The position numbers and the translations under genes are program-made. A stretch of DNA of 64,000 nucleotides from a virus (Duplodnaviria; Heunggongvirae; Uroviricota; Caudoviricetes). The DNA lies in the IMG/VR virus record IMGVR_UViG_3300031994_000017, positions 58,023-122,022 of that record; one strand, given 5' to 3'. Below are positions 9,209 to 41,286 of this stretch, in pieces (position 1 is the stretch's first letter; the number at the start of each line of letters is the position of its first letter). The notes under the pieces were generated by a model. The model did no database searches. It saw only the letters and a list, made by a program, of their open reading frames with translations, and had not been told where the DNA came from.

Positions 9209-9295
9209 TTATTTGCCTCCATACATTGACTTTTCAAAAAAAATTATTTATACTATTTATAGAGATTGAAAAATCAATTAATTTTATTATCTTTT

Positions 9296-9350
9296 TTCTT
9301 TATATAATATATTATATCATATTTTTTCATAAAAATCAAGCAAAAAATAA
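9296..9350 (-). promoter_or_regulatory. Conserved promoter motif (copy 2)
   Basis: TTGATTTTTATGAAAAAATATGATATAATATATTATATAAAG on the minus strand. Confidence 0.45.
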
Positions 9351-9399
9351 AAAAGGACTATATTAATATAAAATAATATAGTCCTTTTATTAAAATTTA

Positions 9400-10713
9400 T
9401 TACATTTTATTTGCTATTTCCGCGATTTTACTTCTATGAATTTGATTTAGTTCAATTTCACCATAAATATCTTCGCCTCTAAAAATTTTAGAAGCTCGAT
9501 ACATACCATTCTTTATACCTTCATAATTAGTTAAATCAACCTAGCTTTTTATATCACCATCTAGAATAAAAATAACATCTTCTCCTGCGCGCTATAATGC
9601 TAATTTTAATAATTCAACATCTAAATTTTGCGCTTCGGTAATATAAATACCGGCATTCATTCCAGAAGTATCATATCCTCTAATATCACTTATAGGCAAT
9701 AATATTAATTTTTCATTGTTTATTAACTATTCTACAATTAATTTACTACCTAATTTGCTTGCTAAAAAGTTGCCTATTTGAGAATCTAAAAGTTTAGCAT
9801 CTTTACTGCCTGGGTAAAAGCCAAGCTTGGCCGCATTTTTAGTCGCTACTGGATTACAAAAGATAATTATTTTATCTATTTTATTTTTTTCTAATAAATA
9901 GAATAAATAACCAATAGCCAAATAAGATTTACCTGTGCCCGCAGGCCCTTTTATCATTGTTATTTGGTTATTTAATAAGCTATCTGCTACCATAGCTTGA
10001 TAAATATCATCTTTATAAGGTTTAATTTCTCCTAATTGTTTAGAGCAAAAACTTTTGTATTTTAATGGACGAAAAGAATTTCCTAACCAGCATAAAGTAT
10101 CTACTCTATTTTTAGTTTGAGTTTCATAAATATTTAAATATTGATTTACTTTTAATTTTAAATCTTGCCCAAGTTTTTCTGGATAAGAATAAAAGTCAGC
10201 CATTTCTTCCTCATTAAGGTAAGCATCAATATATCCTTTATAATCATCTTTGATTTTTTCGCTTTTTACATTTTCTTTACCAAAGAATTGTTGAGCGATT
10301 ATTTTTAAAGCCAAATCATTAGTATAAAAAACACATTTTTCATCCCAATGAGTTTGTAAATAATTATAAGCTGCGGCAAGTATTTTACTATCATTATTTA
10401 TTTCAATATTTAAATCATGAAGCCAATTTTCAAAATTAGTTTTATAAATAATACAAGTATATTTATCAGGATTTTCATCTAATTGATGTAGTAGCTACTA
10501 TGCTTTACTTTTAATACTTGAATCTTTGTTTGCGGAAGTTTTTATATTTTCTAATTCTTTTAATGAAATATTTGTAATAACTATTTTGTCATTGGTATCA
10601 AAAATTTCTTCTGCTTTAATTAATAAGCTACTTGTGTCATATATTTTAGTCATTTTCATATTCTTCTCCTTCTTGCGGTATAGTAAAACCAATTGCGGAT
10701 ACATTATTTTCAA
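9400..10713 (-). CDS. phoH: PhoH2-like protein (PIN domain plus PhoH ATPase) with at least 6 in-frame TAG codons, including a TAG-TAG tandem
   Basis: The N-terminal PIN shows KIYDTSSLL and SLKELENIK. The Walker A is GPAGTGKS. The C-terminal ILDGDIKS[TAG]VDLT aligns with the conserved PhoH GD-x-TQ-I/V-DL motif (recalled from memory), placing TAG at a Gln. The true stop is TAA at 9400. Confidence 0.6.
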
Positions 10714-11029
10714 TATTTGTATTTGTTGCTATTTTTGTTTGATTTTCCGCAATCTTTAACGCTACTTCACTTTGTTTCTATTGGAACCAACTTGCGCACG
10801 TATTAAATATATTATCTAATACTGATACTCCCCAAGCGCCAAAAGAGAAGCCTAAGAAAAATATTGTTATTTTAGAAATAAGACATCATCCTCTCTTATT
10901 AATATATAGGGGTAATAATTTATTACCCCTATATGTATTATTTAGCAGTAGAGTTTTTATTTAAATAATTGATTTTAATTATCCAAGAGGAAAATTTTCT
11001 TTTTCCTTGTTTTCATTTTTATCAGAGTT

Positions 11030-11269
11030 CTATGAAATTTTTAATAAATTTTCTTTCTCAGCCTTTTTATAATAATATGCTTGACTTACCCCATAGGCAG
11101 TCCAAGGTAAAGCCACCATTGCGGTTAGCCAAGGCAATTCCGCGTATGCTCCTAAGAAAACACAAATAAAAGAAAGAGCAATAAGTGAAATTGTCATGAT
11201 CCAAATAAGAGCTGATTCTTGAATTAGTAATTTTTTAGAAAATTCTTTTTTTTTTTGTTCTTTCTTCAT
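11030..11269 (-). CDS. Small membrane protein
   Basis: Hydrophobic helices (ISLIALSFICVFLGAYAELPWLTAMVALPW). Confidence 0.35.
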   Translation of the reverse strand: MKKEQKKKEFSKKLLIQESALIWIMTISLIALSFICVFLGAYAELPWLTAMVALPWTAYGVSQAYYYKKAEKENLLKIS

Positions 11270-11307
11270 TTAAAATTATCTCCTTTTGGTAGGTATGCTT
11301 TAGGTGC

Positions 11308-11742
11308 TTAAGGGTTTTCTTTTATCGGATATTCGTATTTATGTTCGCAACCGAAAATAATATGATTTGGTGATTCTCCAAAATTATTACTATTGAATCC
11401 AATAGCAAACACATCCGCATCCATTCGATTAGCATATTGTATAGTATATTTTCCATTATATATATTACCAGGATAGTCATTTTCAGAATAGACGCAAACG
11501 TTTGGCATAGCATTAATAATTTCTTCATATGTTTTATCAAGTCTTAAATTATTAGTACCTTCAATACGTTCTATATTTACTATTAAGGCTGAAGAATCGC
11601 TGGAGTCATCACCAGATTCAGCATTCTCTTCAACAACATCAGCAATTTTATCCATTACAGATATTAAATTTTTATCCTCTGCTTCCTCACCACTAAGTGC
11701 GGTAAAAATTCTCTTTAATGGTTTTAATAAATTTAGTTTCAT
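11308..11742 (-). CDS. Hypothetical acidic protein
   Basis: 144-aa ORF. Confidence 0.35.
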   Translation of the reverse strand: MKLNLLKPLKRIFTALSGEEAEDKNLISVMDKIADVVEENAESGDDSSDSSALIVNIERIEGTNNLRLDKTYEEIINAMPNVCVYSENDYPGNIYNGKYTIQYANRMDADVFAIGFNSNNFGESPNHIIFGCEHKYEYPIKENP

Positions 11743-11764
11743 TGTTATTATCTCCTTTTAAAAA

Positions 11765-12880
11765 TTATTTTTTTTCAGTATAATCAAGGCAAATCCAACC
11801 AGCGCCAGATTTTAATTTGCCCCAATTATCCTTTTTATCAACAATAGTATATACACCATTTTTATAAATAACAGTTTTAACGCTATAATTGGCGCCTGGG
11901 CCGCTGCGGACATTAAGTGCGTTCGCGGTTACACGGATTACATAGGGGTCAAAAGCAGGGGCAGGTGGTTGCGTGCTGGCCGCAGCTTTAGTGAGATATT
12001 TTGTATTAATAGGGCTACTAATTGAACTCTTTTGGTCTTCTGATTTATCAATAACAGCTCTATCACCTTTAATAGATTTAATATACCATTTTTTAGCTAA
12101 TACCCATGAAGGAATTGCTTTTCCGTTGTAATAAGTTGCGCCAGATTTGATATCAACTAAATCGCCAGCCTTAAATTCTTCGGTAGTTGGGGGAGTCGGC
12201 GGTTCAGGCTCTTTTGCGGCTGGAGGAGTAGTTGCTTTTAAAATCGCAGAAACGTCTGCCCGCACATTGTTCATATCTTTATTGTATTTATTAAACCAAC
12301 TATAAATATCAGTGTGCGCGCCTCCAAGACCTAACTTATAGCTATCCCAGTGGCAAAGAATGGTAGGAACTTGAACGCCCTTATACTATACTGTGCCATT
12401 TGGATCAATATTAAACATATTACATAAATAGGCAGTTATTTCACAAGCTTCTTTATAAGCCTTATTAAAATAGTCCTAGCTTGTGTAGCCGTCATCACAG
12501 ATTTCAAACTAGATCCAAAATGGTCCACCAGTAGAACCATTACAACTACCTTTAGGTCCTGAGCCGCAGCCCCAAGGACGATAATTCCAAGGCATTGTTT
12601 GAACAGTGGTTATAGTTCCATCCGCCAGTTTACCAACCCAGCAGTTAAGACCAGCAGAGTGATGAATATGATTCCAATCATTCTTATAAGCATTTTTACC
12701 TAATAATTGAAGTAATTGAGCTTTATTTGCCGCATTATCATCTGGTTGAACATATCTGCGAAGTTCTGGGTTTCCACCAGCGGTATCATGCCAAAGAATG
12801 CCTACGGGTGTGCCTTTTGTGGTACCTTTATAGCAAGTACTCTATGTCATCATACAAACTAGAGGTTTATTATTTGTATT
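11765..12880 (-). CDS. Endolysin: an N-terminal catalytic domain that uses TAG codons, plus C-terminal tandem SH3b cell-wall-binding domains
   Basis: The C-terminus has KAGDLVDIKSGATYYNGKAIPSWV and VIRVTANALNVRSGPGANYSVKTVIYKNGVYTIVD (SH3-like). The N-terminus MKYNTNNK...GILWHDTAGGN... has a GGAGG SD at 12880 and 4 in-frame TAG codons. Confidence 0.55.
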
Positions 12881-12897
12881 ATATTTCATAAAAAATC

Positions 12898-13113
12898 CTC
12901 CTTTTATTCTTCTTCTTCTTTAGTTGGGTTATTTTTATCTACCCATGTTTTATTTCCATTTAAAATATATTCTTTTCCGCTATTTATTACATAAGCAGTA
13001 CTTCCCATTTTATCAGTAGTGCGTAATTGCTTTATATCTTCATCTGTATCTACTATATAAGTCTAAATACCATATGCTTTAATTCCATTAGAAGCAATAA
13101 TGCCTATAGACAT
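12898..13113 (-). CDS. Small hypothetical protein (1 TAG)
   Basis: MSIGIIASNGIKAYGI[TAG]TYIVDTDEDIKQL... Confidence 0.3.
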
Positions 13114-13210
13114 TTTATTTCCCTCCTTTTTTAATCTCTACTTTTTATAAAAAAGATATCGGTAAAATGAAGCAAAATGGCCCAAAAAGAAAAAGCCAGA
13201 GTGATTTATT

Positions 13211-13633
13211 TCACTCTGGCTTCTTATCTTCGTATTTGTTTTTAATGCGTGTCGCATATTCAGAATAAACATTTACAATATCTTTTTCAAATTTTTTACT
13301 TTGATAAATATAATCTTTAATTACTTCCAAATCATCTTCTCGTTGGCGGATTTGTCGCTGAAGCATTATTGCTTCATAACTCTTTGGATTATATTTTTTG
13401 CTTTTATTCATTGAATAATATAATTGCTTTAAGGCTTGTAATTGCGGTTTAATTTCATTTTCTCGGACGAAACATAAATATTTACGAAATGCTCTTCGTT
13501 CTGCGAGAGAACCGCCAATATATTCACTAAACCTATCTTCTGGATGACAATGAGCTTCTCCAGTAAAGGAAAATCCTTTGTAATCCATAACCGCAGTTGT
13601 TAAACCATTTTCCGCATTGAAAAAAGTTTCCAT
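13211..13633 (-). CDS. Hypothetical protein
   Basis: 140-aa ORF; a promoter motif lies upstream at 13640-13690. Confidence 0.4.
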   Translation of the reverse strand: METFFNAENGLTTAVMDYKGFSFTGEAHCHPEDRFSEYIGGSLAERRAFRKYLCFVRENEIKPQLQALKQLYYSMNKSKKYNPKSYEAIMLQRQIRQREDDLEVIKDYIYQSKKFEKDIVNVYSEYATRIKNKYEDKKPE

Positions 13634-13639
13634 ATATAG

Positions 13640-13690
13640 AACTCCTTTTTTCTTTTATTATATCATATATTTTTATAAAAGTCAAAACAA
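13640..13690 (-). promoter_or_regulatory. Conserved promoter motif (copy 3, more divergent)
   Basis: TTGACTTTTATAAAAATATATGATATAATAAAAGAAAA on the minus strand. Confidence 0.4.
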
Positions 13691-13724
13691 ATATTTATAT
13701 TAAGAGATATACTTGTTTTAATTA

Positions 13725-14041
13725 TTTCATTTGAACATAATCAATTTTAAAGTAATTGGTTCCATCTTTGGTTAACCGCAATGTGCCAACGGTATCATAA
13801 CCAAAAATAATAAAATCAATAAATTTGTAATAAGTATCACAAATATAACTAGTTAATTTACCCGTACAATTAGGTCCTTTAATTTCAATAGCTAAATCTT
13901 CATTATTTTTTGCTAAATTGAAAATATAATCCCAATTAAATTTAGCTTCTTCAATATTTTTACTTTCAAAAATAAGGTTTTTATTTTCCTAATAAGGATT
14001 ATCAGTAATAGTAATAGTAGGGATATAAATAGTCATAGTAT
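13725..14041 (-). CDS. Small hypothetical protein (1 TAG)
   Basis: MTIYIPTITITDNPY[TAG]ENKNLIFESKN... Confidence 0.3.
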
Positions 14042-14194
14042 TTTTTCCTCCTTAAAATTAATTAGCAATTAGATAAATATTATTTAGGCGTGTAAACATT
14101 CACGTCAACAAACAATTTATAAAAGGAAGTCTGCGCGACCTTAGTAGCATGACCAACACAACGATAATTGCTTCGCTTATGTTGATTCCCTCCC

Positions 14195-16081
14195 TTATGT
14201 GATTACTTCATTGATCGTGATGGTCCAATTTGCGCCGGACCCATAGCCCGCGATGCGCAGTAGCGGTCGGTTATTTACTGATTTCAGTGGCATATTATCA
14301 GGCGTCAGCGTCCATGTCATATTGCCGCTCGCATCAAAAGCGATTGTTCCATAGTTGGTGGATGTACCCTCCGTGAGATAACCGCCGCCAACAAAGGTCT
14401 CATCCGTATGGTAACAGCACCACGTTGCGTTGCTGTGTGTAGACTTTCGCATATCCACACCGCTCGTGCGGATGACAACAGTCTCGCCCTTGTCCACCCA
14501 CGGCGTCAGATCGATGAAGCCGGAGGTCGTGTAGCCAGTGGCAGCAGAAAGTGTGCCTTTGCTTGTGGACAGGCGATAGCCGTCTGTGTAGCCGATTGTG
14601 TTGATAAGGTTGGTATAACCACTCGTCACACAGGAAATCGTGATGTTCCCGGTCACATTTGCGATGGAGATTGTTCCATTATTGTATGCCGTCGCAGAGA
14701 TGTCCACGCCTCCCATTAAGACGGTCACGCTGCCGATGGTGTAGCCACTCGGAACGGTCAGTGTTGCGCTGTAGGTCTGGCCCTCTTCGATAGATGTCGC
14801 CATGTTAGAGATCTCCGCCTTGCCAAGGCTGTTGATCGTAATCGTGTATTGTGCCGTCACGTAGTTATAGGTCCGGTCATAGCCGGCGCCGTAATGGTCT
14901 GCGTATATGACACCGCGATCCAGGTCGATGCTCACCACGACAAAGGCCGTGTCCTGTCCGGAGTCAGCGGTCTTGTTGTAAGTAGTTGTTTCGCCGAACT
15001 CGACGCCATTAGATTCTGTTCCGCTATTGCGGCCATATTCGTTATTGCGTCCGAAGCAGACATTTGGTACCGCCAGTCGGACCACATCCATCTCACCCTC
15101 GTCGATGGCGCCACCAGAGTATCCGATGGCGTGGAGCTTGCCCATGAGGTAATTGTGAGTGTGCCCATGAATCTGCGCGATGAGCTTAGCACTGTTTTTC
15201 CCGGAAAAATTGTAGCTTATTGTTATTCCGTCATAAGCCAGTGAGACAGCGCTGCCGTTTAAGTATGCCTTGATTATCTGAGACACGCGGAAGGTCTGCC
15301 AGTCGATTGGGTGGTGACAGCAGATAATCACTCCCCAATTAGCTGCGTCGCTCTTGCTACCAACCTCGCCGAGCCGGTCGGCAAACCACTGTAGCTGCCT
15401 GCCGCTGATCCACAGGTCCTTCGATTGCGTGTCCGCTGTCGTCTCGGCGCTGTTAAGGCAGATCACCCGGATTTGCTTGGATACAAAGTCCTGATAGCAG
15501 TATCCGCCCTTGAGATTTTGCGGATCGACCGTGCCGGTGCTATAGACGCCGACCAGGTTATACATCTCGTCCCGATAGATCGGCGTGTGACCACCGAGGT
15601 CTGAGGAAAAGTGTAGATTATCATGGTTGCCAACACTATGGAACTGCGGCAGACTTCCGAAGGCGTCCGCGAGGTTGGCATGCATCTGCCTAATCTCCGC
15701 AACGCCGTTATCATAGGTTGTGTTGCTGCCGCCGGCGGTGGCATCTCCTAACCACATGCAGCAGTCGATCTCCAGTGCCCGGCGCAACAGGCTGGCCGCT
15801 TGTCCAGCGTGCTTTGCTGAGGTAACAAGCTGCGCGTTAGTGCGGTCGATGTGACTATCTGATAGCGCAAGAATGCGGAAACCATTCACGATCCCGTGGC
15901 TACTGACCTGATTGGCCACCCGGAGCGCCTCCTGTACCACATAACTGTCCGGATAGCTGCTGATCTCCCCGATCGCCGCCGGCATCTGCGCCGGGGTATA
16001 GGATGCGCTTAACCCGTTCTTCGCTCGAATCGCGTTGGCAATCGCGGTGAGGTTAGATTCTGTTATTAAAGCTTGACTCAT
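14195..16081 (-). CDS. Receptor-binding or tail-fiber paralog with a calcineurin-like metallophosphoesterase domain and Ig-like repeats; GC-elevated
   Basis: ILALSDSHID, GDATAGG, GNHDN and GHTHNY metallophosphoesterase motifs. The N-terminus is shared with the 2493..4439 protein. The repeat TLTVPSGYTIGSVTVLMGGVDIS resembles SVGVTPASGYVISDVSITMGGVDIT. Confidence 0.55.
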   Translation of the reverse strand: MSQALITESNLTAIANAIRAKNGLSASYTPAQMPAAIGEISSYPDSYVVQEALRVANQVSSHGIVNGFRILALSDSHIDRTNAQLVTSAKHAGQAASLLRRALEIDCCMWLGDATAGGSNTTYDNGVAEIRQMHANLADAFGSLPQFHSVGNHDNLHFSSDLGGHTPIYRDEMYNLVGVYSTGTVDPQNLKGGYCYQDFVSKQIRVICLNSAETTADTQSKDLWISGRQLQWFADRLGEVGSKSDAANWGVIICCHHPIDWQTFRVSQIIKAYLNGSAVSLAYDGITISYNFSGKNSAKLIAQIHGHTHNYLMGKLHAIGYSGGAIDEGEMDVVRLAVPNVCFGRNNEYGRNSGTESNGVEFGETTTYNKTADSGQDTAFVVVSIDLDRGVIYADHYGAGYDRTYNYVTAQYTITINSLGKAEISNMATSIEEGQTYSATLTVPSGYTIGSVTVLMGGVDISATAYNNGTISIANVTGNITISCVTSGYTNLINTIGYTDGYRLSTSKGTLSAATGYTTSGFIDLTPWVDKGETVVIRTSGVDMRKSTHSNATWCCYHTDETFVGGGYLTEGTSTNYGTIAFDASGNMTWTLTPDNMPLKSVNNRPLLRIAGYGSGANWTITINEVIT

Positions 16082-16102
16082 TTTTTATCTTACCTCACTT
16101 TC

Positions 16103-18688
16103 TTAATAACTTGTAGTATTAGCATTAGCCATGGGAACCCAATTAATTTTTAAATTATTGGTAGAACCATTTTGACTAATTTCAAACTACCCATAAGATA
16201 AGCCTGTGTCTTCATCCTAATAATTAAAATTAAAATATATTTTTTCTATGTCAGTATCTACAAAATAAGAATTTAATCTACCTCTGTTGTATCCGCCATC
16301 ATTAATAATTAATGAAATATTATCACAATTGTCAGCAGCATTCTCAAGTGTGCTCCATGTTACAGCGGGAGTATATGAAAGAGTAGCTGTTGTGAAAGGA
16401 TTAGACGTTATTGTCAATTCTAACTAAGTAGTTACTGCTTTATTGTCTATAAACAATTCATTAGATGATGGATTATAGGTTAATGATGAAGCTTTGTTCA
16501 CAGTAGCAGTTACAGCTGTTGTAGCAGTTGTACCACCCAATAATATTGGATAATTACCACTAGTTGTAATTGCCGCGGCTTGCGTAACTTGATGATCACC
16601 AGTTGGTATAGTCCATGATCCAGAATTATTTAAGAAGTAAGTAGAAGAAGAACCAAAAGCTGGGCCAGCTTTTACCATATTACTATCGCTATTGTCAGTA
16701 ATTAAAATACGGTCACTAGAAGCAACTGTTACAGTAGTTGTTACAGCGCCAGCATTAGTGATATTACCATGAGTATGCTCGTAAGTAGCAGCTCCTCCTG
16801 AAGAACCAAGAGTCATAATACCAGGAGAATCAGTAGTAGCTGTTGGTGGTGTGTAATTTAATGATAGATGACCATCTATTAGTGTAAACTATTCACTAAC
16901 ACTTTCGATAAAATTAAAATTTTTAATATAAATAGTTAATATATGATCTTCACCATTATATATAGCTGCTTGTCCCTAAAAGAAACTTGAAGCTATTTGT
17001 TGAGCAAAACCAATAGTACCAGGAATAAGCATAAAAGATCCCATAGTTACGGTACTTTTAGGATAAAATAAAATTTCTGAAGGATAAAATAAAATTTCTG
17101 AATCAGTAAAATCATATACTGCTATATAATAACTTAATATTTCTTGGTTAATAAAACTCTAAGGTACATTATTATAGGTCAGAGTAGTTACACCATTTTT
17201 AGTAATTATTGTGGGAGGTCCATAATCATTTAAATTTATATGATGTATTAGTGTCTCATTTCCAAGTTCTTCCCAAGTATTACCATTCCATACAAATTCA
17301 GTCTAGCTATTATCAGCGCTATTATATTGTAAATATACATCACCAGCATCACCTAAATACTCACTACCTATAACACTACTTGCCGCATTCTCAGTTCCGC
17401 CATCAGTAATGGTCTATTGGGCAGAACCTTTAAAGTGCATTGCTCCTGTGGTAGCACCAATTTCATAGATGTCTGTTATGGTAGCGATACAGTATTCTGA
17501 ATTTTCAGATTGCGTTACTAAAAAAGTAATTAATTTATTTTTATAAATCCCTTGAAATGAAATACTGGTTCCATTTATTCCAATAGGAAGAATAGGAAAA
17601 GAATCAACTATTTCATTTGCCTATGAATCATCAACTAATACTCCTACTATATAAGTCTAAGCTCCCTCCAAACAAAAACCAATTAATTGACTATAAGATA
17701 TTTCACTACGAGATGTAAAATTCACTACGGCAAAAGTGTTATTTATAGAAAGTGAAAAAGGATAAGAAACTACTCTTATAAACTCTACAAGTTTTGCATC
17801 ATAATTGGTAAAAGCATTACTTATTTGACTATTGACCCAACTAATATTAGGTATTATATCTCCGCTAGAATCATCAGTAGGAGTGGGAGCCGTTGGGGCT
17901 CCAGTAAACGCAGGGCTTGCTACTGGCGCTCTACTTGTGTCAGTTGGGTGAACATGGTCTGCTCTAGCATATTCGGTTGAAGTACCAATAGCGCCTGTAC
18001 CATCCATAACGGGAGTAGTTGTAGCAAAACCACGATTTCCATTATAGATACCAACAATATGATATTGCGTGCTATACATCATAATAACAACATCATTAGG
18101 TTTGATTAAATTAGTGGGGCAAGCAGCACCATTCCAATAAATCGCTTTAGCGCCTTTACTATTTATATTTAAGGTTGGATTTGCGGCCGTATTACCATTG
18201 GTAAATTTAATTGCGCAAATACCATGAGCAACTAAAGCATATGATGACATTGAAACAGTTTTTGCGGCTGTGCCTACTGCGGTACTACAAGTTCCATAGC
18301 ATTGACCTTGTGCTACATTATTTGTATAACCAGAGGAATTATAGCCATAATACATCATCCAACAGCCGCCAGAGATTCTAGTGCTATCATATACAAATAA
18401 CATTGTATAAGCTGTATTAAATGTAGTAGTTACTGCGCTGGCGTTGGCCATACTATTATAAATGGGTTTAGCGCCCAAACCATTGACATTTAAAGTACAA
18501 CCAGAAGCAGAAGTTACTTTACCATTTTTGATAAAGCAGCAAACACCATCTCGCAACTCTTTAATGCCAGGAACAGTGGCGGTAAAGGCTGTTGAAGTTG
18601 AAGTGCTGTCAACAGTGCCGGACGGAATAGCCACTGCCCGCACACCATATTCTTGTTCATTAACTTCTATATTACTTATAAAAGCCAT
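16103..18688 (-). CDS. Tail fiber protein (about 860 aa) with many in-frame TAG codons
   Basis: The start MAFISNIEVNEQEYGVRAVAIP has an AAAGGAG SD. An internal module MHFKGSAQ[TAG]TITDGGTENAA...GDAGDVYLQ...EFVWNG is shared with 19924..21170. The frame is continuous through ORFs 17657..18688, 16424..16816 and 16217..16417 to a TAA at 16103. Confidence 0.55.
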
Positions 18689-18709
18689 AATTTATATTTT
18701 CTCCTTTCA

Positions 18710-19840
18710 TCATTTTTATTTTGATGACTAGGATTTTTCTAATAAAGCTAAATAATTTTTCTAAATTCTTTCATCTAAAGGAGCTAGCTATAAGGCTTTT
18801 AAAGCATTTTTTAAACCTTTCTCTATATCATTAAGATAAAAACAAGAAATAGCAATTGTATCATACGGACCTTCGCGCCAGACGACAGCGCGTTCAGTCC
18901 AGTCAAAATGCTAATGACTTTTCGCCAATCCCTCTTCCATGAAAGCAAGAGCAATATTATACAGCCCTAGATCATTATATATAGTGGCAAGATTATAATA
19001 TGGTTCTCTATATGTATAATCTAATATTAATTGTTGATTATAGTATTTTATTGAGGTAGCAATATCATTTTTACAACGATAAATATCTCCCAAATAACCC
19101 GTTACACAATATTCGACAAGCGGGAATGTTTTAATATCATCTCTGGCAAGACATAATTTAAACTATTCTATTGCTTTATCAAATTCTCTAAAATTACCAT
19201 ATTCTCTACCTAAGAGATAATAACCATAAGTATCAGTAGGATCTTCTTCAACCCGCAGTTTTAACAAATCTAAATAATTAGATCGTGATTTTTCCTAGTC
19301 GGGATAGTGATGTAAGGTAATAGAATTACCGAAATCAATTAAATGACCTCCTTGTATTTCTGCGGCTAATTCTTTGTATCCTCCAGGAGGTAAAAGAACT
19401 TCATGAACCGCGAAATGCCATTGATACCCATGGATATGCATTTTATCATACCAAAATGTTTCAGCGGGTTCTCCTGTTGGGGTATGTGACCAAATATACC
19501 GATAATGGCCACGCCAAGTATTTTCTGTCCAATTATTGCGAATTAAATCACCCCAACCGGGTTCAAGTAATTCGTCTAAATCAGTGCAAAATAAGATATT
19601 AGCATCTTCTGGCACAAGTTTTAATGATTCATTGCGGGCAACATCAAAACGCCAAGGTTTAATTATTTTTTGTTCTATTCTTGTTACTCGTGAATCATTT
19701 TTAAAAAATTCATATGTTCCATCGGTTGAGCCGGTATCTAAAATTACTATATAATCGGCCTCTGACATTGAATCAAGCCATTTGGCAGCAAATTTCATCT
19801 CATTTTTACATATAGCGTAAATACAAACTTTATTTTCCAT
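18710..19840 (-). CDS. Family-2 glycosyltransferase fused to TPR repeats. It contains TAG codons and an apparent +1 frame change near 19195.
   Basis: GT2 N-terminus (CIYAICKNE...ILDTGSTDGT...DLDE). The TPR text continues in the +1 frame after ...YYLLGRE|LW*. Confidence 0.4.
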
Positions 19841-19923
19841 ATATAATCTCCTTTATCTCATTTACATCAAGAGGTGACCATTAGGCCACCTCTTGATAGT
19901 TATAATTTTTATTAAATTGTTTA

Positions 19924-21170
19924 TTACAGAGTGACAGAGCCAGTAACGCCTTCCATATATTGTTTTGTGCTAGTAACAGTAATGGTTGCTGAGGTGCCCG
20001 TAAATGTAGGACGAGAAACTGTGCCATTTGGCAGTGTAATAGAAGTGCTGGTAGATGTGTCAATTTCGGTAACAACATCTTCGGTAGCTGTAACTGTAAT
20101 AGTTGCTGAAGTACCGGTAAATGTAGGCTGAGAAACTGAACCAGCGGGAGTATATGTTCCAGTACTAGTAATAGCGGCCTTTGTTGGGGTGATTTCGACA
20201 CTAACAGGAAGTGTAACATTGACCGTAGTAGAACCCCAAGTAAGAGTAGGAGCAGAAACTGTGCCAGCAGGAGTATAAGAGGCCGTAACTGTAATAGTCG
20301 CAGTAGTGCCAGAGAAGGTAGCTCCTGTAACATCTTTTACTACTGGTGTTGTTAAAGGATTAATAGCAGTTACTACATTCTCAGTAGACCAAGATAATAT
20401 TTCATTACTTACTGTAGCTGTATAAAGAACATTCGCTAAAGTAGGAGTATCAAAACCATAAACAACAGAAGTAGTTGTTTTATTTACACTAACGGAACCA
20501 GCGGGAGTATATGTTCCAGTACTAGTAATTGTAGCTTTAGTGCCAGTAAAGGTAGGTTGACTTATTGTATTACTAAGCAAAGTAGCTTGACCAGTTCCAG
20601 ATGTTACATCTTTAACAAACTACTCTGAGCTAGTAACTGTAATAGTCGTTGAAGTGCCAGTAAAAGTGGGTTCTGAAACTGTGCCGGCAGGAGTATATGT
20701 TCCGCTGCTAGTAACCTTTTTTAGCGTTGGAGTATCAAAATTAATATTAACTGCCACAGTTTTTGTGGAGTTTGTAGTAGCCCAACTGAAAGAAGGGGTG
20801 CTAATGGTACCAGCAGGAGTATAAGTTGCGGTTGAACTTACTGTAGATTTTGTGGGAGTAAGATCTACTGAATATGTGCCATGAGTTGCGTAAGAACCTT
20901 CATCGCCTAAAAGTTCCCAAGCTGACCCAGTCCATACAAATTCGCTAGTGCCAGGAGATTTTTGTAAATATACATCACCAGCAGCACCTGTATATGGACT
21001 GCCAGAAGCAGCAGCCGCATTTTCAGTTCCGCCATCTGTTAAAGTCTACAAAGCTCTATTTTTAAAATGCATTGGACTACCAATACTACCAATTTGTTCA
21101 CGAGCCCATGCGTCTTTAATATTATAAGTAATTGTACCTATATTTACTTTAGAAATATATGGTGTTGTAG
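19924..21170 (-). CDS. Tail fiber paralog with tandem 'PTFTGT-ATIT-TGTYTPAGSVS' repeats; contains TAG codons
   Basis: The start MPTTPYISKVNIGTITYNIKDAW has an SD. It shares the MHFKNRAL[TAG]TLTDGGTENAA module. About 7 imperfect repeats of roughly 30 aa. Confidence 0.5.
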
Positions 21171-21199
21171 GCATATTTTTTCCACCTTTCTTTTTAAAA

Positions 21200-21745
21200 T
21201 TAAATTGGCGTTATAGAAATTCCAGAAATAAATTCAGTATCAAAAGTAAGTATTTCAGAGCCTTCTACTACAGAAGCAGGAAGACTTTGATTAATGCCTA
21301 TTGCAATACTATCTTTATAAGCTAAGGCGCCCAATGACTAAGTAGTCGCGATACCTAATTCTGAAATTACTTGCTATTTTGTAAGAGACCTAATGCGGCC
21401 ATTGTTATCTATAACCGCAAAATTATCGGGGATACTTTCCCCTTCACCAATACTTATATTGCCTGTAGTTTCTAAGTATTGGCCTTGGATTGCCCCAGTA
21501 GAAGCATTAAAAGAACTTGAAGTAGTTCCATTTTGATCTACTATTTGAACATCGCCTGTAATCGTTCCGCCTGTTAAAGACATTTTTAAAGGGTCTTTAA
21601 CTTGAACTCTACGATCAGTTAAATCTATATAAAGAGCTAATGTTTCTGAATCAAAAACAAAAGCACCTGGTTCTAATGGCGGAAAAAATGGAGACGTCGC
21701 AGTAACCGAGGGGCCGTATTTAAATTTTACTAAATTTTGGTTCAT
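21200..21745 (-). CDS. Short tail fiber-like protein with an 'SLTGGTITG' motif (T4 gp37/gp12-like LSGGTMTG)
   Basis: MNQNLVKFKYGPSVTA...KDPLKMSLTGGTITGDVQI...; 2 TAG codons in the C-terminus. Confidence 0.45.
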
Positions 21746-21763
21746 GCCACTTCTCCCTTCTAA

Positions 21764-22147
21764 TTTTTTAATTAAGGAGTAGAATTTTCTGGTTCGAAAT
21801 GCTCCCAAGTCGGTAAAGCATTATATACAGCCCTGGCACTAGGAATTTGATCATCTGTTGACAATGAGTTAATTACTGTAATTAAATCTAAATCTTCTCC
21901 CGTAATGCCTGGAATAGTTATTTCTTCACCATTAATCAGAAGGGTCCCTGGTTCTGTGCCGGGGGTAATAGATATTGAAACGACCTAATCAATAGCTTCT
22001 AGAATTTCATTATTTAGTTCTATTTGTTTTATGAATTCCTATAATTTAGTATCTATTTCATATTTATTATAATAATGTAATTTTATTCTTTCAGCCAATT
22101 GCTTTAAAGCAGAAACTTTTACTAATTTTGTTAGGTCATAAGCCATT
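21764..22147 (-). CDS. Hypothetical protein (3 TAG codons)
   Basis: MAYDLTKLVKVSALKQLAERIKLHYYNKYEIDTKL[TAG]EF... Confidence 0.35.
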
Positions 22148-22172
22148 ATTCTCTCCCTCCTTTTTTTAGAAT

Positions 22173-22222
22173 TTTAATAATAAATTTACTCCATTAAAAC
22201 ATGAAAGGTGCTTTAATGGAGT
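22173..22222. terminator. Hairpin (TTTACTCCATTAAA / TTTAATGGAGTAAA) downstream of the large virion gene
   Basis: A 14-bp perfect inverted repeat around a 13-nt loop. Confidence 0.4.
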
Positions 22223-22373
22223 AAATTAATTTTGACCAAAAAAATTCTTACGTATTAATCTATTCAATATGATTCTAATTATTAAAATAATACCATATAA
22301 GTTGTTTAACCTAAGGATTATAACTATCATCAAAATCATAATAATTAAATACTATTCCTATATTATTAATAGA

Positions 22374-25300
22374 ATCAATTATGCTCTAAGTTAAAGATCC
22401 ACCAATTATGGTTTTGCCTCCAAAATCTCCATCAATAAATTTTAAAGTTATAGAACCTCTTTTTTGGAGAATTTCTTTTGCTAAAAGAAGATCATTTTCT
22501 GTAATAGAATCATATAAATCTTCTCCTATCTTTTTCTCATATTCATAACTATTATATAAAGGTCTCCAATAAAATTCAAAAATATTATTATTATCATTTG
22601 ATATTTTATAAACGAAAGTGGGTGTTGATGAATCAGATCTAAAACCTGCTCCGTCCGGGGAGTTCAGCTGAAAAACATCATTAGAAGGTGATAATATCAA
22701 AGAACCATCTTTATAATTTTTTCTACTTTCAGTTTTATTGGTAGAGTTAAAAATATATTCACCCACATCACTATCATAAGTAATAGTTTCATAATCCATT
22801 AAATAACGCATATTTGGTGCGTTTATTTTATTTTTGACGGAAGTATTTAAATCAGATAAAGGAATTCCGCCAGAAGGCTTAACATAAGCATTATCTATTT
22901 TTGTCTATAAACTATTATCTAAATCATTATAAGAAATTATTTTATTACTCAAGTCTCCAATTTTTGTGGTAACAACATAATCAGATTGAATTTCTCCTAC
23001 TTGATAGAAAGACTAATTACAAATAATAACATCATTTACCGCAGGAATAGCATTACCCGCAAAAGGATATGGCAATGAAGTTAAATCAAAAACATAAGTA
23101 TCATCACCATAACGTCCACCAGAAGAAGGATTGCGACTTGACAATAATATTTTAAAGGAATTAAGTTTGTCAACTACATTACTAGCTAATTGAACTTCGC
23201 TAATTGAACCTTCTGGAATAATAATGCGTGTAGGATCAAACTCTATTGAAGAACCATCTTCTATATTGATAGTAAATGGTAATGAAGTAATAGGAATTGC
23301 ATCTATTCCAATAGGACATTGTAAATTAGTCAATAATCTATATCTTAAATCTTTTAAATATTCTACATCATTTTCGTTTTTGCGATAATTGTAAATGGTG
23401 TCAATATCTAAATTAGGATATTCTTCTTTAAGTAATTTCAACCATTCGATTAAAGAAGAACAAGTTTCCAATAATTCCGCATGGTTATTTTCCGCGTAAC
23501 TACTACCATTCCAAATGTAAGGATATTGAATTTCATCAGAACTTTCATCTTTCTTAAAATGATATAATTTGAAATCATCCCCATCATGTAAGCCCGCGTT
23601 CTTTAATTCTGTGATTAAAATATCTCTTAGAACAACATCATGCATTAATAAAGTTCTATTAGATGTGGCATTGCGCGCTAAATAACAAGCAAAATTAATA
23701 AAAATTTCTCTACCTTCTGGATAGTCTTTAAAAATATCATAAAGATAAGGAGCTGAAGTAGTTTGATATAAATTAAAGAAATTATTCTCCGTACTTAAAA
23801 CAAAATCACCTGGTATCATATGATTTAATTGTTTAAAACGAATTTCAGTTCTTAAACTATTATTCACTTCACTACTGGAAATTTTTTCTTGTATTACTTT
23901 TGGTAATAAATACAAAGTATTAAATACTAATTTAGTTTTATCTTGCTCATTGTTTAAAATATTATTTTGATATTTTTTGAGCTGTTCAATATAATCACTT
24001 AATCCATGGAAATAAGAGTCATTTAGGCCCTATTGAGACTATAAATATTCTATAAAACCAGGTAAAGCCGCAATCTTATTAATATTTTGATCTTGCTAAT
24101 TAGGAGATAAATAAGTAATATTATTTCCGCGGATGTAAGTTCCGCCAGCTCTAGTAGCACCATCAACCTCGTTGTTAATATAAGTTAAAACATCTTCGGT
24201 TAAGAAAGATTCGCGGCCAGAGCCATTTTCTGCGATAGTCTAAGGGCGGTAAACGCGTCTTAATTCTGAAGAATAAGGATTATATATATAATCATTTACT
24301 CTTGGGGTATTGTCATTATTATATCCTAAAAGTTTTTGATATACCTTTCCACCTGGATATTCTATGCCGCCAGAGTATAATAAATCTCCGCAGAACTACC
24401 AGATATTCCCGGTATTAATAGTTCCACGTTTAACGCAATGTAAAGCCATCGCTCCATGAGGATATTCTTTTACAATATTTTCACCATAAATTTCTTCATT
24501 TAAAATTGGAATATGGTAATAAATTCTAGGAGAGGCAATATTAATTACAGGTCTAAAAAGAGAACTTCCTTGCCAAACATTATTATTAAAAACCGCGGAA
24601 ATTTCTCCACCTTGCCCCAGATAAGTATTTAAATCACTAGTAATTCTTGGAATTTCGTTCTAATTAACAATATCTTCCGTTTTATCAGAGTCATAACTGA
24701 CATTGTATTTAGGATGAGTAGTATAATAAATTTTATTATTTTCTTCATTTAAATTGCCAGTTACCATATTTTCTCTTTTTATAAAATCAGATAGTTTATA
24801 ATCTGTGTTTCCAATTTTTCCGATTACAATATCTTTATTTTCTTGCATCATTAATTCGTAATGATTACGAATGGTAGTATGTCCACTTCCATTTACCAAT
24901 TCGCTATCAGCACCAGAAGCAACACTTTCATCTACTCCTGGGGTCATTGATTTTAGAATTAAATATAACGCATTAGCTTCATCTATAAAATATGTATGAG
25001 TTGCTTCTGGTTCATTTGGATCTGGATCACCAAAAGTTTTCTTTATTCTGTCCTAATACTCCCAATTATAAATTGTTTCTGGACGATATTGATTAGTATT
25101 ATTTTTATCTACCTATAAAGATAAGGCTGTATTGGCGGTAATTCCTTCACTATTTGCGGTAACTTCATAAATATTACCAGTAGAAGGCTAAAATAAAATT
25201 GCTCCAGACAAAGAACTGGTCTAAGAACCAATTTTTTCTGGAACAAAAGTTTCCCAAGGAAGAGCAACATATTCTACAAAAGCAGAAATAGAGCCTCCTA

Positions 25301-25982
25301 CTTGAGTATTATAAAGACCAGTTAATAATCTTTCTTTTTTTACATCTGCTTCTCCGCCGAATATTAAATTATAAGCAGCTGCGTCACTGGCATCAACTTT
25401 TTCTTCACAAACTTTCGCAAAATCAGCAAAATGCCATTTATTTTTTACCCAAGCATTAGTGGTATTTTTAAGAGCATTTTTATATTTTTTAATCCATTCT
25501 GGTTCATTTTTAAATAACTCTTCATAAGTGGTTTTCTTATAAATAACATCTTTATAATTAATATCTTCAAAATATTCTGAAAGAATTGGAATACCATATT
25601 CTTCTACTTTGGCCTATGGGGTTAAAATAAATAATTTACGTTTGCCATTAGCTATATCTGTAAAAGCTTGTTTAACCCAATTATCTTCTTGGTCTAAGAT
25701 AGTAAGTCCTTTTGCGCTAGTCGCCAAATTATTCAGCACATTAGCTATTTTTGCTTCTAGTATTCCATCGCCAAAGATATTAGTAATAGCAGTTTCTTGT
25801 TCTACAAGAGTTGGATTTTGTGAATTATAAGAAACATAATTTTCTTGTTCTAAGAAATCTCTTACGTCTTTAGCTACATAGTTTATCTATTCTTCTGTAA
25901 TAATAGCATTTTTTTCAAGTTCATATTGACTGTTGCCTTGATATAATTGCGGATTATTTTTATCGTAAACTATATCTGCCAT
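22374..25982 (-). CDS. Large virion or structural protein, about 1202 aa, in a single frame with about 16 in-frame TAG codons
   Basis: ATG at 25982 with GGAGG 9 nt upstream. The frame is continuous through ORFs 24660..24947, 23013..23915 and 22386..22811, which are separated only by TAG, to a TGA at 22374. Confidence 0.55.
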
Positions 25983-26156
25983 TATGCGTTTACCTCCTTT
26001 TTATCATTATATCTATTATTTATAAAAAACGATAAAGGAAAATAAAGCTTTTTGGGCCAAATTAGTTTTTACTTTAAAAAAACTTAAAGGGCTTTCAAAT
26101 TTGGGTTTTCGGGGCTTACTTTTGCGGCCGGTCCGAGGAACCGATTGTAAAAGAAA

Positions 26157-26186
26157 GTGAGCTATAAGATCATCTTATAGCTCACT
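26157..26186. terminator. Perfect hairpin GTGAGCTATAAGAT-CA-TCTTATAGCTCAC at the early/late boundary
   Basis: A 14-bp inverted repeat located after the small peptide gene. Confidence 0.45.
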
Positions 26187-26652: not shown

Positions 26653-27060
26653 TTATTTCAAATTATCAAGCGGAATAAATTCAAATTCATCATAGACATT
26701 AGGATAGAAAATTCCAACCCAAAAATTTTTTTGAAGTGCCTTTCCTTCTGCCAAATCTTCATTCCATTCTTGGACCTGATTTGCTAGTTCCTTTTTACCA
26801 TATTCATTATCATTGTTATACATGCCGCTTTCTACTTGATGCATCAAGGAATCATATCTCTGATGACTAGAAGCAACAAAACCAGGAGCACCCAAAGATT
26901 GAATAAGAATTATAATGGTCATAACGATAATAGCAACAGTAGTTGTCATACCTCCAAGAAGACTAGTTATCTCCCAACCATCATAATCATAGCTATCTTT
27001 AAATTTGACATAAACTACCCAACAAGCAATACATAAGATAATACAAATAAAATAAATCAT
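26653..27060 (-). CDS. Membrane protein with two predicted TM helices
   Basis: MIYFICIILCIACWVVYV...TTTVAIIVMTIIILI. Confidence 0.4.
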   Translation of the reverse strand: MIYFICIILCIACWVVYVKFKDSYDYDGWEITSLLGGMTTTVAIIVMTIIILIQSLGAPGFVASSHQRYDSLMHQVESGMYNNDNEYGKKELANQVQEWNEDLAEGKALQKNFWVGIFYPNVYDEFEFIPLDNLK

Positions 27061-27078
27061 TTTTCTCTCCTTTAATTA

Positions 27079-27693
27079 TTATAATTGTTCTTTACATTCT
27101 TCAACCTTTTGATACATTTCCGCGATTACATTTTCAATATTTACAGGGAAACAATCATGGCTATCTACGCCTACATGATACATATAAGGTTGGTCTTCAA
27201 AGAAATTATTTTTTTGATGTGTATGACCATAAAGATTAAGTGTCATTTGCTTTAAGCTTTCTTTTTCAAGATTACCAGTAAGAGTAGGAAAATGAGAAAG
27301 ATAAAAATGATACTTGCCATATTTAAGATAAATAGCATTTTTACATTCAACTACATTTGGAAGTGTAGGATACGCAAGCCATCGCTGTTCTGTATCATGG
27401 TTGCCTCTTACAATATGGAGTTTTCCATTCATTTGTTTAATAAGCTCAAGACCTTCATTCATTTTATCAGCGCCACCAAGCATAAGGTCTCCAAGCACAT
27501 AAACATCATCTTCTGGTGTAACAATAGAATTATGTCGCATCAAAAGGGCTTGGTTCATGTCTTCTACTAAAGTAAAGCCACGAGGGACATAAATAAATTC
27601 TCTATTATGGCAAAAATGCCAGTCACTAGTAACATAAATTTTACTCATATTATTCCTCCATGTAGATAATTTTATCATAGGTAAAATTATCAT
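27079..27693 (-). CDS. Calcineurin-like metallophosphoesterase
   Basis: YVTSDWHFCH, GDLMLGG, GNHD and GHTHQ. Confidence 0.6.
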   Translation of the reverse strand: MIILPMIKLSTWRNNMSKIYVTSDWHFCHNREFIYVPRGFTLVEDMNQALLMRHNSIVTPEDDVYVLGDLMLGGADKMNEGLELIKQMNGKLHIVRGNHDTEQRWLAYPTLPNVVECKNAIYLKYGKYHFYLSHFPTLTGNLEKESLKQMTLNLYGHTHQKNNFFEDQPYMYHVGVDSHDCFPVNIENVIAEMYQKVEECKEQL

Positions 27694-28138
27694 CTTTTGG
27701 GTCTGTCATTCCATTATACATGGTTTCAATAGCATGATGAGGAACATTTGCGCGACCAGTGCGGGTATCATTGCGCTTAAAGCACGTTTCAAGGGAAGGC
27801 TTGAAAACAACAACCCAAACTTCATCATAACATTTATCGCCAGAACGCTTACAAAATCTATCAATATTAGCAAGAAGCTTTCTGCGGCTTAACCAATTCA
27901 AATGAGACGCATCTGCGATTACGTCATGCCCGAACCGCAATTCACCTACGATATGATTACAGAATGTGTTAAAAACCAACTTTTCTTTTGCGAAATAATC
28001 ATCTTCTTCTTTCAAAAGAGAAAAACGAATTTCATCTCGGCTAATTACAATCGTGCCAAGATGTTTAGCCGCGTAATTTCTTGCCCAGGTAGATTTTCCA
28101 CTACCGGGAGCGCCAGAAAGAATAATTATTTTACCCAT
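27650..28138 (-). CDS. P-loop kinase (polynucleotide kinase / AAA_33-like)
   Basis: GKIIILSGAPGSGKST Walker A; about 160 aa. Confidence 0.5.
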   Translation of the reverse strand: MGKIIILSGAPGSGKSTWARNYAAKHLGTIVISRDEIRFSLLKEEDDYFAKEKLVFNTFCNHIVGELRFGHDVIADASHLNWLSRRKLLANIDRFCKRSGDKCYDEVWVVVFKPSLETCFKRNDTRTGRANVPHHAIETMYNGMTDPKDDNFTYDKIIYMEE

Positions 28139-28446
28139 GCTTTACCATTCTCCTTTATGTATTCAATAGAATTTGCTGCCTCTTCTTTAAAATGTCCAGC
28201 AGCAAATTCTTCAAGAAACCATTCTTTATCTTCAAGGCAAGTAACTTCAATACAATTAACTTCTACTCGGCAGTATGGGCAATAGAGAGCCTTCTTATGG
28301 CATCTGCTATGTTTATGACCTTTTTTCCGCATAATAGGAAAAGTCTTATTGCCGCAATTCATACAATAAAAATCATGCGACTCATATTTAGCTGTTCCTC
28401 TACTCATTTTCTTCTCCTGTTGTAACTTCAAAAATATGTTCATCAA
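28126..28446 (-). CDS. Zn-ribbon protein
   Basis: CMNCG...CPYCR motifs. Confidence 0.4.
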   Translation of the reverse strand: MMNIFLKLQQEKKMSRGTAKYESHDFYCMNCGNKTFPIMRKKGHKHSRCHKKALYCPYCRVEVNCIEVTCLEDKEWFLEEFAAGHFKEEAANSIEYIKENGKAWVK

Positions 28447-29146: not shown

Positions 29147-29152
29147 ATCCTT

Positions 29153-31410: not shown

Positions 31411-31514
31411 TTTTATTAACTTCTTTCTTTATTTTCTATATATATTATACTATATTTTTTAATAAAAATCAATAAAAAGAGAGGAAAGTAGAAACTTTCC
31501 TCTCTTATTTTATA

Positions 31515-32468: not shown

Positions 32469-32498
32469 TTTCTTACTCCTTTTTTAATATTAACTTTT

Positions 32499-33641: not shown

Positions 33642-33660
33642 GGGTTCATCCTCACTTTCT

Positions 33661-41283: not shown

Positions 41284-41286
41284 CAT

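Follow-up and report, generated by a model that had tools for sequence, protein, structure and literature searches.

In a 64,000-nt stretch of a tailed-phage genome (IMG/VR record IMGVR_UViG_3300031994_000017, positions 58,023 to 122,022; hereafter the window, meaning the whole stretch analyzed), in-frame TAG codons are concentrated in one block of 14 minus-strand genes that include fiber-like, glycosyltransferase, lysis and PhoH genes, and a family of strong host-type promoter motifs precedes genes that are almost free of TAG, together with the gene for the suppressor tRNA predicted to read UAG as glutamine. We explain this layout by promoter timing combined with TAG recoding, in which the motif-driven genes would be early and TAG-poor and the block would be late and in need of the suppressor, and we put the probability of this explanation at roughly 0.7. 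The window is part of an AT-rich (~35% GC) phage genome of ~150 kb, and nearly all of its genes lie on the minus strand, so that transcription runs from position 64000 toward position 1. It is collinear with the ENA metagenome contig ERZ27256871, k141_3267896 (150,422 bp), with all sampled 60-mers identical; window position 1 corresponds to about position 17845 of this parent contig, and the accessible DNA comprises 82 kb, that is, the window plus 18 kb of flanks.

TAG codons are concentrated in a block of 14 genes

Genes were called under genetic code 15, in which TAG is a sense codon, giving a set of 68 genes in the window. Lengthening of open reading frames (ORFs) upon reading TAG as sense is almost confined to 9.4-26 kb, where frames of 863, 1251, 452, 429, 385 and 379 codons replace fragments. 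The resulting gene lengths match independent calls on the parent contig (1244, 124, 181, 416, 374, 861, 628, 104, 140, 69, 374, 144, 96 and 419 aa). The genes of the block, all on the minus strand and given in the order of transcription, are as follows.

22248-25982, minus strand: 1244-aa protein, first gene of the block, 18 TAG; only a weak match to a tail-protein PHROG
21772-22146, minus strand: 124-aa protein, 2 TAG; gene call and parent-contig call
21200-21745, minus strand: 181-aa fiber-like protein, 2 TAG; gene call and parent-contig call
19924-21174, minus strand: 416-aa repeat-rich fiber-like protein, 2 TAG; has a 61-nt segment, 75% identical, in common with the 861-aa fiber gene
18716-19840, minus strand: 374-aa glycosyltransferase-TPR protein, 6 TAG; at four of these positions homologs have mostly Gln
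16103-18688, minus strand: 861-aa tail-fiber protein, 10 TAG, all beyond codon 343; gene call and annotation
14195-16081, minus strand: 628-aa metallophosphoesterase-type fiber-like protein, 54% GC, CAG-rich, 0 TAG; composition and annotation
13722-14036, minus strand: 104-aa protein, 1 TAG; gene call and parent-contig call
13211-13633, minus strand: 140-aa protein, 0 TAG, motif-driven; gene call and the promoter copy at 13646-13685
12904-13113, minus strand: 69-aa protein, 1 TAG; gene call and parent-contig call
11765-12889, minus strand: endolysin with Amidase_2 and SH3 domains, 4 TAG; domain annotation
11308-11742, minus strand: 144-aa protein, 0 TAG; gene call and parent-contig call
10979-11269, minus strand: 96-aa hydrophobic membrane-type protein, 1 TAG; holin candidate by position only
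9400-10659, minus strand: 419-aa PIN-PhoH protein, last gene of the block, 5 TAG

Together these genes hold 52 in-frame TAG in 5173 codons (10.05 per 1000), compared with 23 in 11938 codons (1.93 per 1000) outside 9400-25982 (Fisher p 5e-12). The original prediction had placed the concentration at 10700-25982, and the count bears this out: 47 TAG in 4755 codons inside that region (9.9 per 1000) and 28 in 12356 outside (2.3 per 1000; Fisher p 3e-10, per-gene Mann-Whitney p 1.4e-5), a significant difference between modules under table 15 and not the equal density that would have spoken against the claim. The natural block nevertheless begins at 9400 and not at 10700, because the PhoH gene, which lies outside the region first proposed, belongs to it. 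The accompanying statement that nearly every gene there has multiple TAG codons was too strong, since 10 of the 13 genes in 10700-25982 have at least one, only seven have at least two, and three have none (11308-11742, 13211-13633 and 14195-16081); the observation is essentially right but overstated. Among the gene products named for the region, the endolysin, the glycosyltransferase-TPR protein and the fiber-like proteins were all recovered, with the supposed 1202-aa protein being 1244 aa long. The label of late structural module suits the fiber-like, glycosyltransferase, lysis and PhoH genes, but the block has no capsid, portal or terminase gene, and a terminase gene was found neither in the window nor in the 18 kb of flanks.

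Fourteen of the 23 TAG codons outside the block sit in two homing-endonuclease-like genes (DUF2726 and GIY-YIG), without which the outside density falls to 0.78 per 1000 (Fisher p 2e-18 versus the block); the GyrA-like, GyrB-like, RNase H, ligase and DnaB genes have no TAG at all. As a share of glutamine codons, TAG makes up 30% in the block and 6.5% outside. Off-frame TAG densities are similar in both gene sets (24.9 and 18.2 per 1000 in block genes versus 17.1 and 18.0 in non-block genes, set against in-frame values of 10.05 versus 0.78), so the contrast is frame-specific and not compositional. Low-GC block genes use three CAG versus 87 CAA, compared with 35 versus 163 outside (p 5e-4), and the near absence of CAG is consistent with C-to-T changes having turned CAG into TAG in all places that tolerate it. 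An over-preference for TAG in the lysis gene was not found in this single genome, where the comparison has low power (four TAG versus seven CAA in the endolysin); the highest preferences for TAG over other glutamine codons belong to the DUF2726 gene (8 versus 3), the glycosyltransferase (6 versus 5) and the GIY-YIG gene (6 versus 6). The first TAG often lies deep in the gene, for example at codon 344 of 861 or codon 182 of 374.

The 54%-GC gene at 14195-16081 is probably a recent acquisition. Its product is a paralog of the fiber-like protein encoded at 2493-4439 on the plus strand, the two having N-terminal segments and Ig-like repeats in common; the former carries a metallophosphoesterase domain in DNA far from the ~35% GC of the genome, and the latter a Y_phosphatase3 tyrosine-phosphatase domain (42.5% GC, two TAG). 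Homologs of the 14195-16081 product are abundant in metagenomes, with a top non-self match of 68% identity, and both paralogs look like recently acquired enzymatic tail appendages.

UAG decoding and the suppressor tRNA

Several lines of evidence indicate that UAG is decoded as glutamine (genetic code 15) and that the phage carries its own glutamine-type tRNA with anticodon CUA. In-frame TAG occurs within conserved genes that are open for TAA and TGA, namely those for PhoH, the endolysin, the glycosyltransferase, the fibers, the 1244-aa protein and serine hydroxymethyltransferase (SHMT). The 68 genes end in TAA (62) or TGA (six) and none in TAG, so the reassignment is genome-wide. In an alignment of the PhoH protein of the window with those of two sibling contigs, TAG stands opposite a glutamine of the others in five of 11 TAG-bearing columns. 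Glutamine is also the commonest residue at four of the six TAG positions of the glycosyltransferase-TPR protein among 120 homologs, against a background of 2.8%; close homologs may themselves be code-15 translations, but at more distant ones glutamine still reaches 11-20% at TAG positions versus the same background.

46142-46218, minus strand: suppressor tRNA, anticodon CUA; normal cloverleaf, 57 bits with the Rfam tRNA model

The tRNA-CUA has U1 opposite U72, the pairs G2-C71 and G3-C70, G10 and G73; U1, G2-C71, G3-C70, G10 and G73 are acceptor features of bacterial tRNA-Gln. Among the annotated window proteins there is no release factor, no glutaminyl-tRNA synthetase (GlnRS) or other tRNA synthetase, and no phage sigma factor. 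Between the suppressor gene and the promoter-motif copy upstream of it lies a tRNA-like remnant (46277-46335, minus strand), in which the T-arm consensus GGTTCGATTCC leads into an acceptor-like end, ...CCGCCA; the remnant is called by neither ARAGORN nor Rfam.

A promoter family marks TAG-poor genes and the suppressor

The repeat-family motif reads, on the coding strand, TTGATTTTTT(A/T)AAAAAA..T.TG.TATAATATATATAGAAAATAAAGA, and is composed of a sigma-70-type -35 element (TTGATT or TTGACT), a 17-nt spacer and a -10 element TATAAT, often in the extended form TGnTATAAT, within conserved flanks; a Shine-Dalgarno site and ATG, or tRNA genes, lie downstream of its copies. By this architecture it is a strong host-type sigma-70/sigma-A promoter family. 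A scan of the window with a position weight matrix (PWM) returned 20 minus-strand copies scoring 31.7-56 bits and one plus-strand copy of 25.8 bits. The separation is sharply bimodal, with a single other position above zero (4.5 bits) and mononucleotide shuffles reaching at most 1 bit. Outside the block, most transcription units have such a promoter. The family precedes the tRNA arrays, the suppressor tRNA and genes of replication, nucleotide metabolism and RNA repair, and those genes are almost TAG-free. The TAG-containing genes of the block, by comparison, have none of the motif promoters in front of them, and the block is insulated by terminators. The elements at and around the block, in the order of transcription, are as follows.

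46343-46382, minus strand: promoter-motif copy of 55.9 bits (PWM), with the suppressor tRNA 124 nt downstream
31433-31472, minus strand: nearest motif copy upstream of the block, driving TAG-poor genes from 31410 down to 26275 (PWM)
26156-26186, minus strand: terminator-like hairpin closing the upstream TAG-poor operon, just ahead of the block
26009-26061, minus strand: motif ahead of the 1244-aa gene, candidate late promoter or leader (repeat pair)
13646-13685, minus strand: promoter-motif copy inside the region first proposed, TTGACT-17-TGATATAAT with TG, 31.7 bits; absent from the PWM training set
13190-13225, minus strand: terminator-like hairpin closing the embedded early-type unit
13137-13186, minus strand: other copy of the candidate motif at 26009-26061, ahead of the 69-aa and endolysin genes (repeat pair)
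9351-9388, minus strand: terminator-like hairpin at the end of the block, just past PhoH
9300-9339, minus strand: motif copy directly after the block, driving the TAG-free RNase H, GyrB-like and GyrA-like genes (PWM)

The original prediction held that none of roughly 20 motif copies falls within 10700-25982, which is correct for 19 of the 20 minus-strand copies and fails for the copy at 13646-13685. The depletion is moderate, with P(0 of 19) = 0.006 and P(<=1 of 20) = 0.03, or P = 0.017 when the flanks are included (82 kb, 30 copies). Scanning the block for the generic sigma-70 consensus gave 101 sites versus 80 +/- 9.5 in shuffles, a comparison that is uninformative in such AT-rich DNA. The internal motif copy, the TAG-free 140-aa gene behind it and the hairpin at 13190-13225 constitute a self-contained embedded early-type unit, an exception that fits the rule. 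At the far end of the block, the hairpin at 9388-9351 is followed immediately by the motif copy for the RNase H, GyrB-like and GyrA-like genes.

The position of the suppressor gene behind a motif copy implies that this tRNA shares its promoter class with the presumed early genes. A gate, if there is one, would therefore be kinetic, through accumulation of the tRNA, its charging by the host GlnRS and its competition with release factor 1 (RF1), and would not depend on late synthesis of the tRNA.

Two further features of the motif family were observed. The sequence just past the -10 element occurs in two versions, ATATATGTAAGATAAAGA and ATATATAGAAAATAAAGA (for example in copies 46343-46382 and 47538-47577, respectively, both on the minus strand), which may define promoter sub-classes that differ in the first nucleotides transcribed; of the six copies with the ATATATGTAAGATAAAGA version, four precede tRNA genes, the suppressor included. 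The lone plus-strand copy (9226-9265, TTGACT-17-TATACT, 25.8 bits) faces the minus-strand copy at 9300-9339 and points at the TAG-rich block, toward the 3' end of PhoH. A short antisense or convergent transcript could result, which the hairpin at 9351-9388 may stop.

The candidate late motif is ~70 nt long, its two copies being ~75% identical (TTTGGsCCA..GCTT.ATTTT...TTTTTTATAAA.A.TAGA.AT), and it is found ahead of the first block gene and just after the terminator of the embedded unit. The sequence upstream of the 1244-aa gene contains the T4 late-promoter consensus, TATAAATA. No copies beyond the two originals were found in the window, the flanks or the relatives. About 5 kb to the right of the window, amid dense early-type promoters, a 211-aa gene (L008, 4892-5527, minus strand) that runs opposite to its neighbors has nine TAG (43 per 1000), the highest density encountered. 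Its product looks like a DNA-binding protein, and its upstream sequence, ATTTTTATATATAGTAGA-AGGAGG, resembles the core of the candidate late motif.

The motif and TAG density in related phages

An exact-pattern scan of IMG/VR for the motif found at least 117 stretches, the majority being on contigs 100-240 kb long. About half of the 117 loci listed gain more than 8% coding density under code 15, and they contain 423 PWM copies in 950 kb. In motif-strand ORFs of 150 aa or more from these loci, TAG becomes denser the farther a gene lies from the motif, going from 1.15 per 1000 codons in the first gene to 2.72 at 200-3000 nt and 4.56 behind more than 3 kb of motif-free upstream sequence (codon-level p 5e-11; gene-level p for at least two TAG, 0.005). 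This rise is a trend and not a precise estimate, as the ORF calls are crude, unrecoded loci are possibly included and the sampling is promoter-rich. The same loci contain 449 tRNA genes, 10 of which are tRNA-CUA; nine of these 10 have a same-strand motif copy upstream, six of them within 510 nt. The layout of the window is repeated in a syntenic relative (L002), which has TAG in the endolysin, PhoH and endonuclease genes and motif-like sites ahead of the TAG-free RNase H-gyrase and ligase genes.

Promoter timing, recoding and alternative explanations

In the explanation that we favor, the motif-driven genes would be transcribed by unmodified host polymerase from the start of infection. These units must be readable while UAG still terminates, and selection would thus keep TAG out of them. 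Transcription of the block would follow later from a different signal, for which the two-copy motif (26009-26061 and 13137-13186) is a possible candidate, and full-length fiber, lysis and endonuclease proteins would appear only when enough suppressor tRNA has built up to compete with RF1. Recoding would thereby act as a translational back-stop on top of transcriptional timing, and would also silence homing endonuclease genes that lie inside early transcription units. In genes that tolerate it, TAG would have arisen largely from CAG via C-to-T change under AT pressure.

A number of observations weigh against this explanation. Early and late are putative labels, drawn from promoter type and gene function alone; the late promoter is a candidate with two copies and none in relatives; and the depletion of the motif in the block reaches only p ~0.006-0.03. 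The suppressor is early-type, which leaves the gate without an obvious switch, and first TAG codons placed deep in genes are poor gate design. The partition also leaks, as at three genes on the minus strand.

44801-44840, minus strand: motif copy directly upstream of the DUF2726 gene, 51.8 bits (PWM), followed by a strong ribosome-binding site
44061-44786, minus strand: DUF2726 (PD-(D/E)XK-like) endonuclease-like gene, 8 TAG in 241 codons (33 per 1000), the highest density in the window
40003-41286, minus strand: SHMT gene (Pfam SHMT, E 1e-141) in a motif-driven unit, TAG at codon 20
375-989, minus strand: GIY-YIG homing endonuclease gene, 6 TAG in 204 codons (29 per 1000), between the halves of an NAD-dependent ligase gene

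The DUF2726 gene is thus TAG-dense and sits right behind a motif copy. The TAG at codon 20 of the motif-driven SHMT gene is genuine and in-frame, lying immediately before the conserved LIASEN motif, and four small genes of motif units (h261, h90, h75 and h144) carry one or two TAG each. In a more distant relative, L001, TAG is also present in the RNase H and UDG genes, and TAG-containing genes there have weaker motif-like sites in front of them.

The GIY-YIG gene at 375-989 belongs to a unit driven by the motif copy at 2194-2233, and a second GIY-YIG gene, with eight TAG, is located in the left flank. Around the first, the gene for the NAD-dependent DNA ligase is split (region 2-2174) into a 371-aa N-terminal ORF (1059-2174, minus strand) and a C-terminal ORF, which encodes 274 aa on the parent contig and is overlapped by the GIY-YIG gene. 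No Rfam match to a group I intron was found near the split ligase and GIY-YIG genes at E <= 1; the arrangement may be a split gene with a free-standing endonuclease or may contain an undetected intron.

The most serious competing explanation is that the pattern is purely a by-product, with transcription setting the timing and TAG drifting neutrally (CAG to TAG under AT pressure) once the suppressor is abundant, with no regulatory role. We regard this as a real possibility that falls somewhat short of an even chance. TAG in the block has about half the frequency of CAA and CAG is nearly gone, as near-neutral drift gives; TAG positions turn over quickly, the PhoH genes of the window and L001 sharing two of 10 TAG-bearing columns; and the depth of the first TAG and the promoter class of the suppressor point the same way. 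However, the densest TAG genes of the window are the two endonuclease genes embedded in motif-driven units (33 and 29 per 1000), joined by the GIY-YIG gene of the left flank, and late transcription cannot explain their TAG. Borges et al. (10.1101/2021.08.26.457843) also report that lysis genes and the endonuclease of an intron over-use recoded codons convergently, which argues against neutral drift.

The gating model that accompanied the original prediction, in which stop-codon recoding holds back late or lytic expression until the suppressor tRNA is made, is partly supported. The glutamine reading of TAG, the tRNA-CUA, the readability of most motif-driven genes in the standard code and the need for read-through in the fiber and lysis genes all agree with it; the suppressor behind an early-type promoter and the leaky partition qualify it, and the data fit an adaptive gate and equally a passive pattern, with TAG kept out of early genes by necessity and simply tolerated in late ones. 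The depth of the TAG sites and their fast turnover favor the by-product view, and the TAG-dense endonuclease genes in early units favor translational control.

A mosaic origin, with the block derived from a fully recoded phage, the rest from a standard-code phage and the contrast reflecting ancestry, is improbable. Fiber genes are commonly exchanged between phages, the gene at 14195-16081 (54% GC) is foreign and lies inside the block, and GC-richer islands that use CAG exist outside it. Yet the relative synonymous codon usage (glutamine excluded) of low-GC block genes correlates with that of low-GC genes elsewhere as well (r = 0.946) as in a split-half control (0.955), so the block is not foreign, and a mosaic was rejected on this ground. 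The one clearly foreign gene of the block is, moreover, its large TAG-free gene, TAG terminates none of the genes, SHMT and further genes outside the block have real TAG codons, and relatives repeat the layout.

That TAG specifies a residue other than glutamine, or that the TAG-interrupted ORFs are pseudogenes or gene-calling artefacts, is scarcely credible: ARAGORN labels the tRNA-CUA 'Pyl', a name (tRNA-Pyl) that it gives to any CUA anticodon, and standard-code gene callers do break up such genes (for example on contig L007), but no Pyl genes are present among the annotated proteins, the tRNA fits the standard Rfam model and has glutamine-type acceptor features, a 1244-codon frame free of TAA and TGA in 29%-GC DNA cannot be non-coding, orthologs are conserved in relatives, and all three readings were rejected on the alignment of TAG with glutamine in siblings and homologs and on ORF continuity.

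Promoter timing with recoding can be extended into a joint reading for a widespread family of 100-240-kb phages, which we offer tentatively and think unlikely to be right as a whole. One host-type promoter class would define the part of the genome readable in the standard code, including the suppressor tRNA; TAG would provide a second, transcription-independent timing layer, strongest on endonuclease genes in early transcripts, which would be untranslatable until the code switch; and the two-copy motif would represent true late promoters.

Genomic context and host

The phage host is probably a member of the Bacillota (Gram-positive), because of the Shine-Dalgarno sites, the sigma-A-type promoters, the Amidase_2 and SH3 endolysin and the SPbeta-like YorF/YorH neighbors. 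The window contains 31 tRNA genes at 45.6-57.8 kb, one of them with anticodon CUA. Three predictions in the array are unusual, all on the minus strand: a tRNA with a four-base anticodon (ttgt; 54270-54345), a 95-nt tRNA-Ile(TAT) (54377-54471) and a tRNA-Phe(AAA) (50727-50801) beside a normal tRNA-Phe(GAA). Adjoining the array is an RNA-repair and tRNA-maintenance gene set (26653-30708, 37053-38450, 42492-44027 and 46712-47521, minus strand) that encodes an RNA ligase, a polynucleotide kinase, three metallophosphoesterases, a nucleotidyltransferase, a Thg1-like tRNA-His guanylyltransferase and a protein matching the PHROG 'RNA-binding protein' family (Pfam DUF2828/DUF7788). The only TAG in the set is in the gene for a NinI-like phosphatase (28388-29137), three codons ahead of the stop. 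At 31515-34554 (minus strand), an island of higher GC content (39-43%) that prefers CAG encodes an SPFH/Band-7 protein, an adenylosuccinate-synthetase homolog whose best-matching PHROG is annotated as PurZ-type, and one protein of unknown function; if the homolog is a true PurZ, the phage might carry 2-aminoadenine DNA.

A megablast search of the GenBank phage set with 49 kb of the window gave no match, and tblastn with the GyrA-like protein gave identities of at most 36%, so the phage has no annotated close relative in that set. The accessible 82 kb yielded neither a phage sigma factor nor a phage RNA polymerase. For a 262-aa protein in the right flank annotated 'Sigma70_r4_2 (weak)', the match is weak and confined to the N terminus, and the protein does not resemble a sigma factor.

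Comparison with known systems

In phages T4, SPO1 and T5, strong host-sigma consensus promoters precede early and tRNA genes, and late genes have promoters without a -35 element that depend on phage factors. The window is alike in having host-sigma promoters before early-type and tRNA genes and a T4-like late consensus upstream of the 1244-aa gene, and it differs in that the candidate late motif has only two copies.

Among recoded phages, phAss-1 (proposed Phassvirus; PMC10607447) is a 136-kb gut-virome phage with 36 tRNA genes, TAG in 28% of its ORFs, three tRNA-Sup-CTA genes and no dedicated aminoacyl-tRNA synthetase. Both it and the phage of the window are large code-15 phages with many tRNAs, with three suppressor genes in phAss-1 and one in the window; the megablast search with 49 kb of the window covered a phage collection expected to include phAss-1 and found no nucleotide similarity.

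Borges et al. (10.1101/2021.08.26.457843) described several code-15 clades with recoded structural and lysis genes, mostly standard-code replication genes and suppressor tRNAs, including an early-gene intron endonuclease that is heavily recoded in Agate phages; for crAss-like phages, proteomic validation of recoding is reported in PMC9523058. The idea that stop-codon reassignment serves as a late or lytic timer is thus a published hypothesis. The family described here has a clean layout, with a recognizable promoter marking TAG-poor genes and the suppressor, an insulated TAG-rich block, an embedded early unit and TAG-dense endonucleases, and this layout separates transcriptional from translational timing within one genome. 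It also shows the need to annotate such genomes with table 15.

The crAss-like, Lak and 'gemstone' clades (10.1101/2021.08.26.457843) resemble the window in their reading of TAG as glutamine, their tRNA-CUA, their recoded structural and lysis genes and a recoded homing endonuclease in an early gene. The window differs from them in having no close relative in the GenBank phage set and no release factor or tRNA synthetase, and the link to a sigma-70-type promoter is not addressed in that preprint, in which the word 'promoter' occurs 0 times. The interpretation in the original prediction is therefore the published model, of which the window is a clear new example, with modest additions: the link to a promoter family, the embedded early unit, the suppressor behind an early-type promoter and the depletion of CAG in the block.

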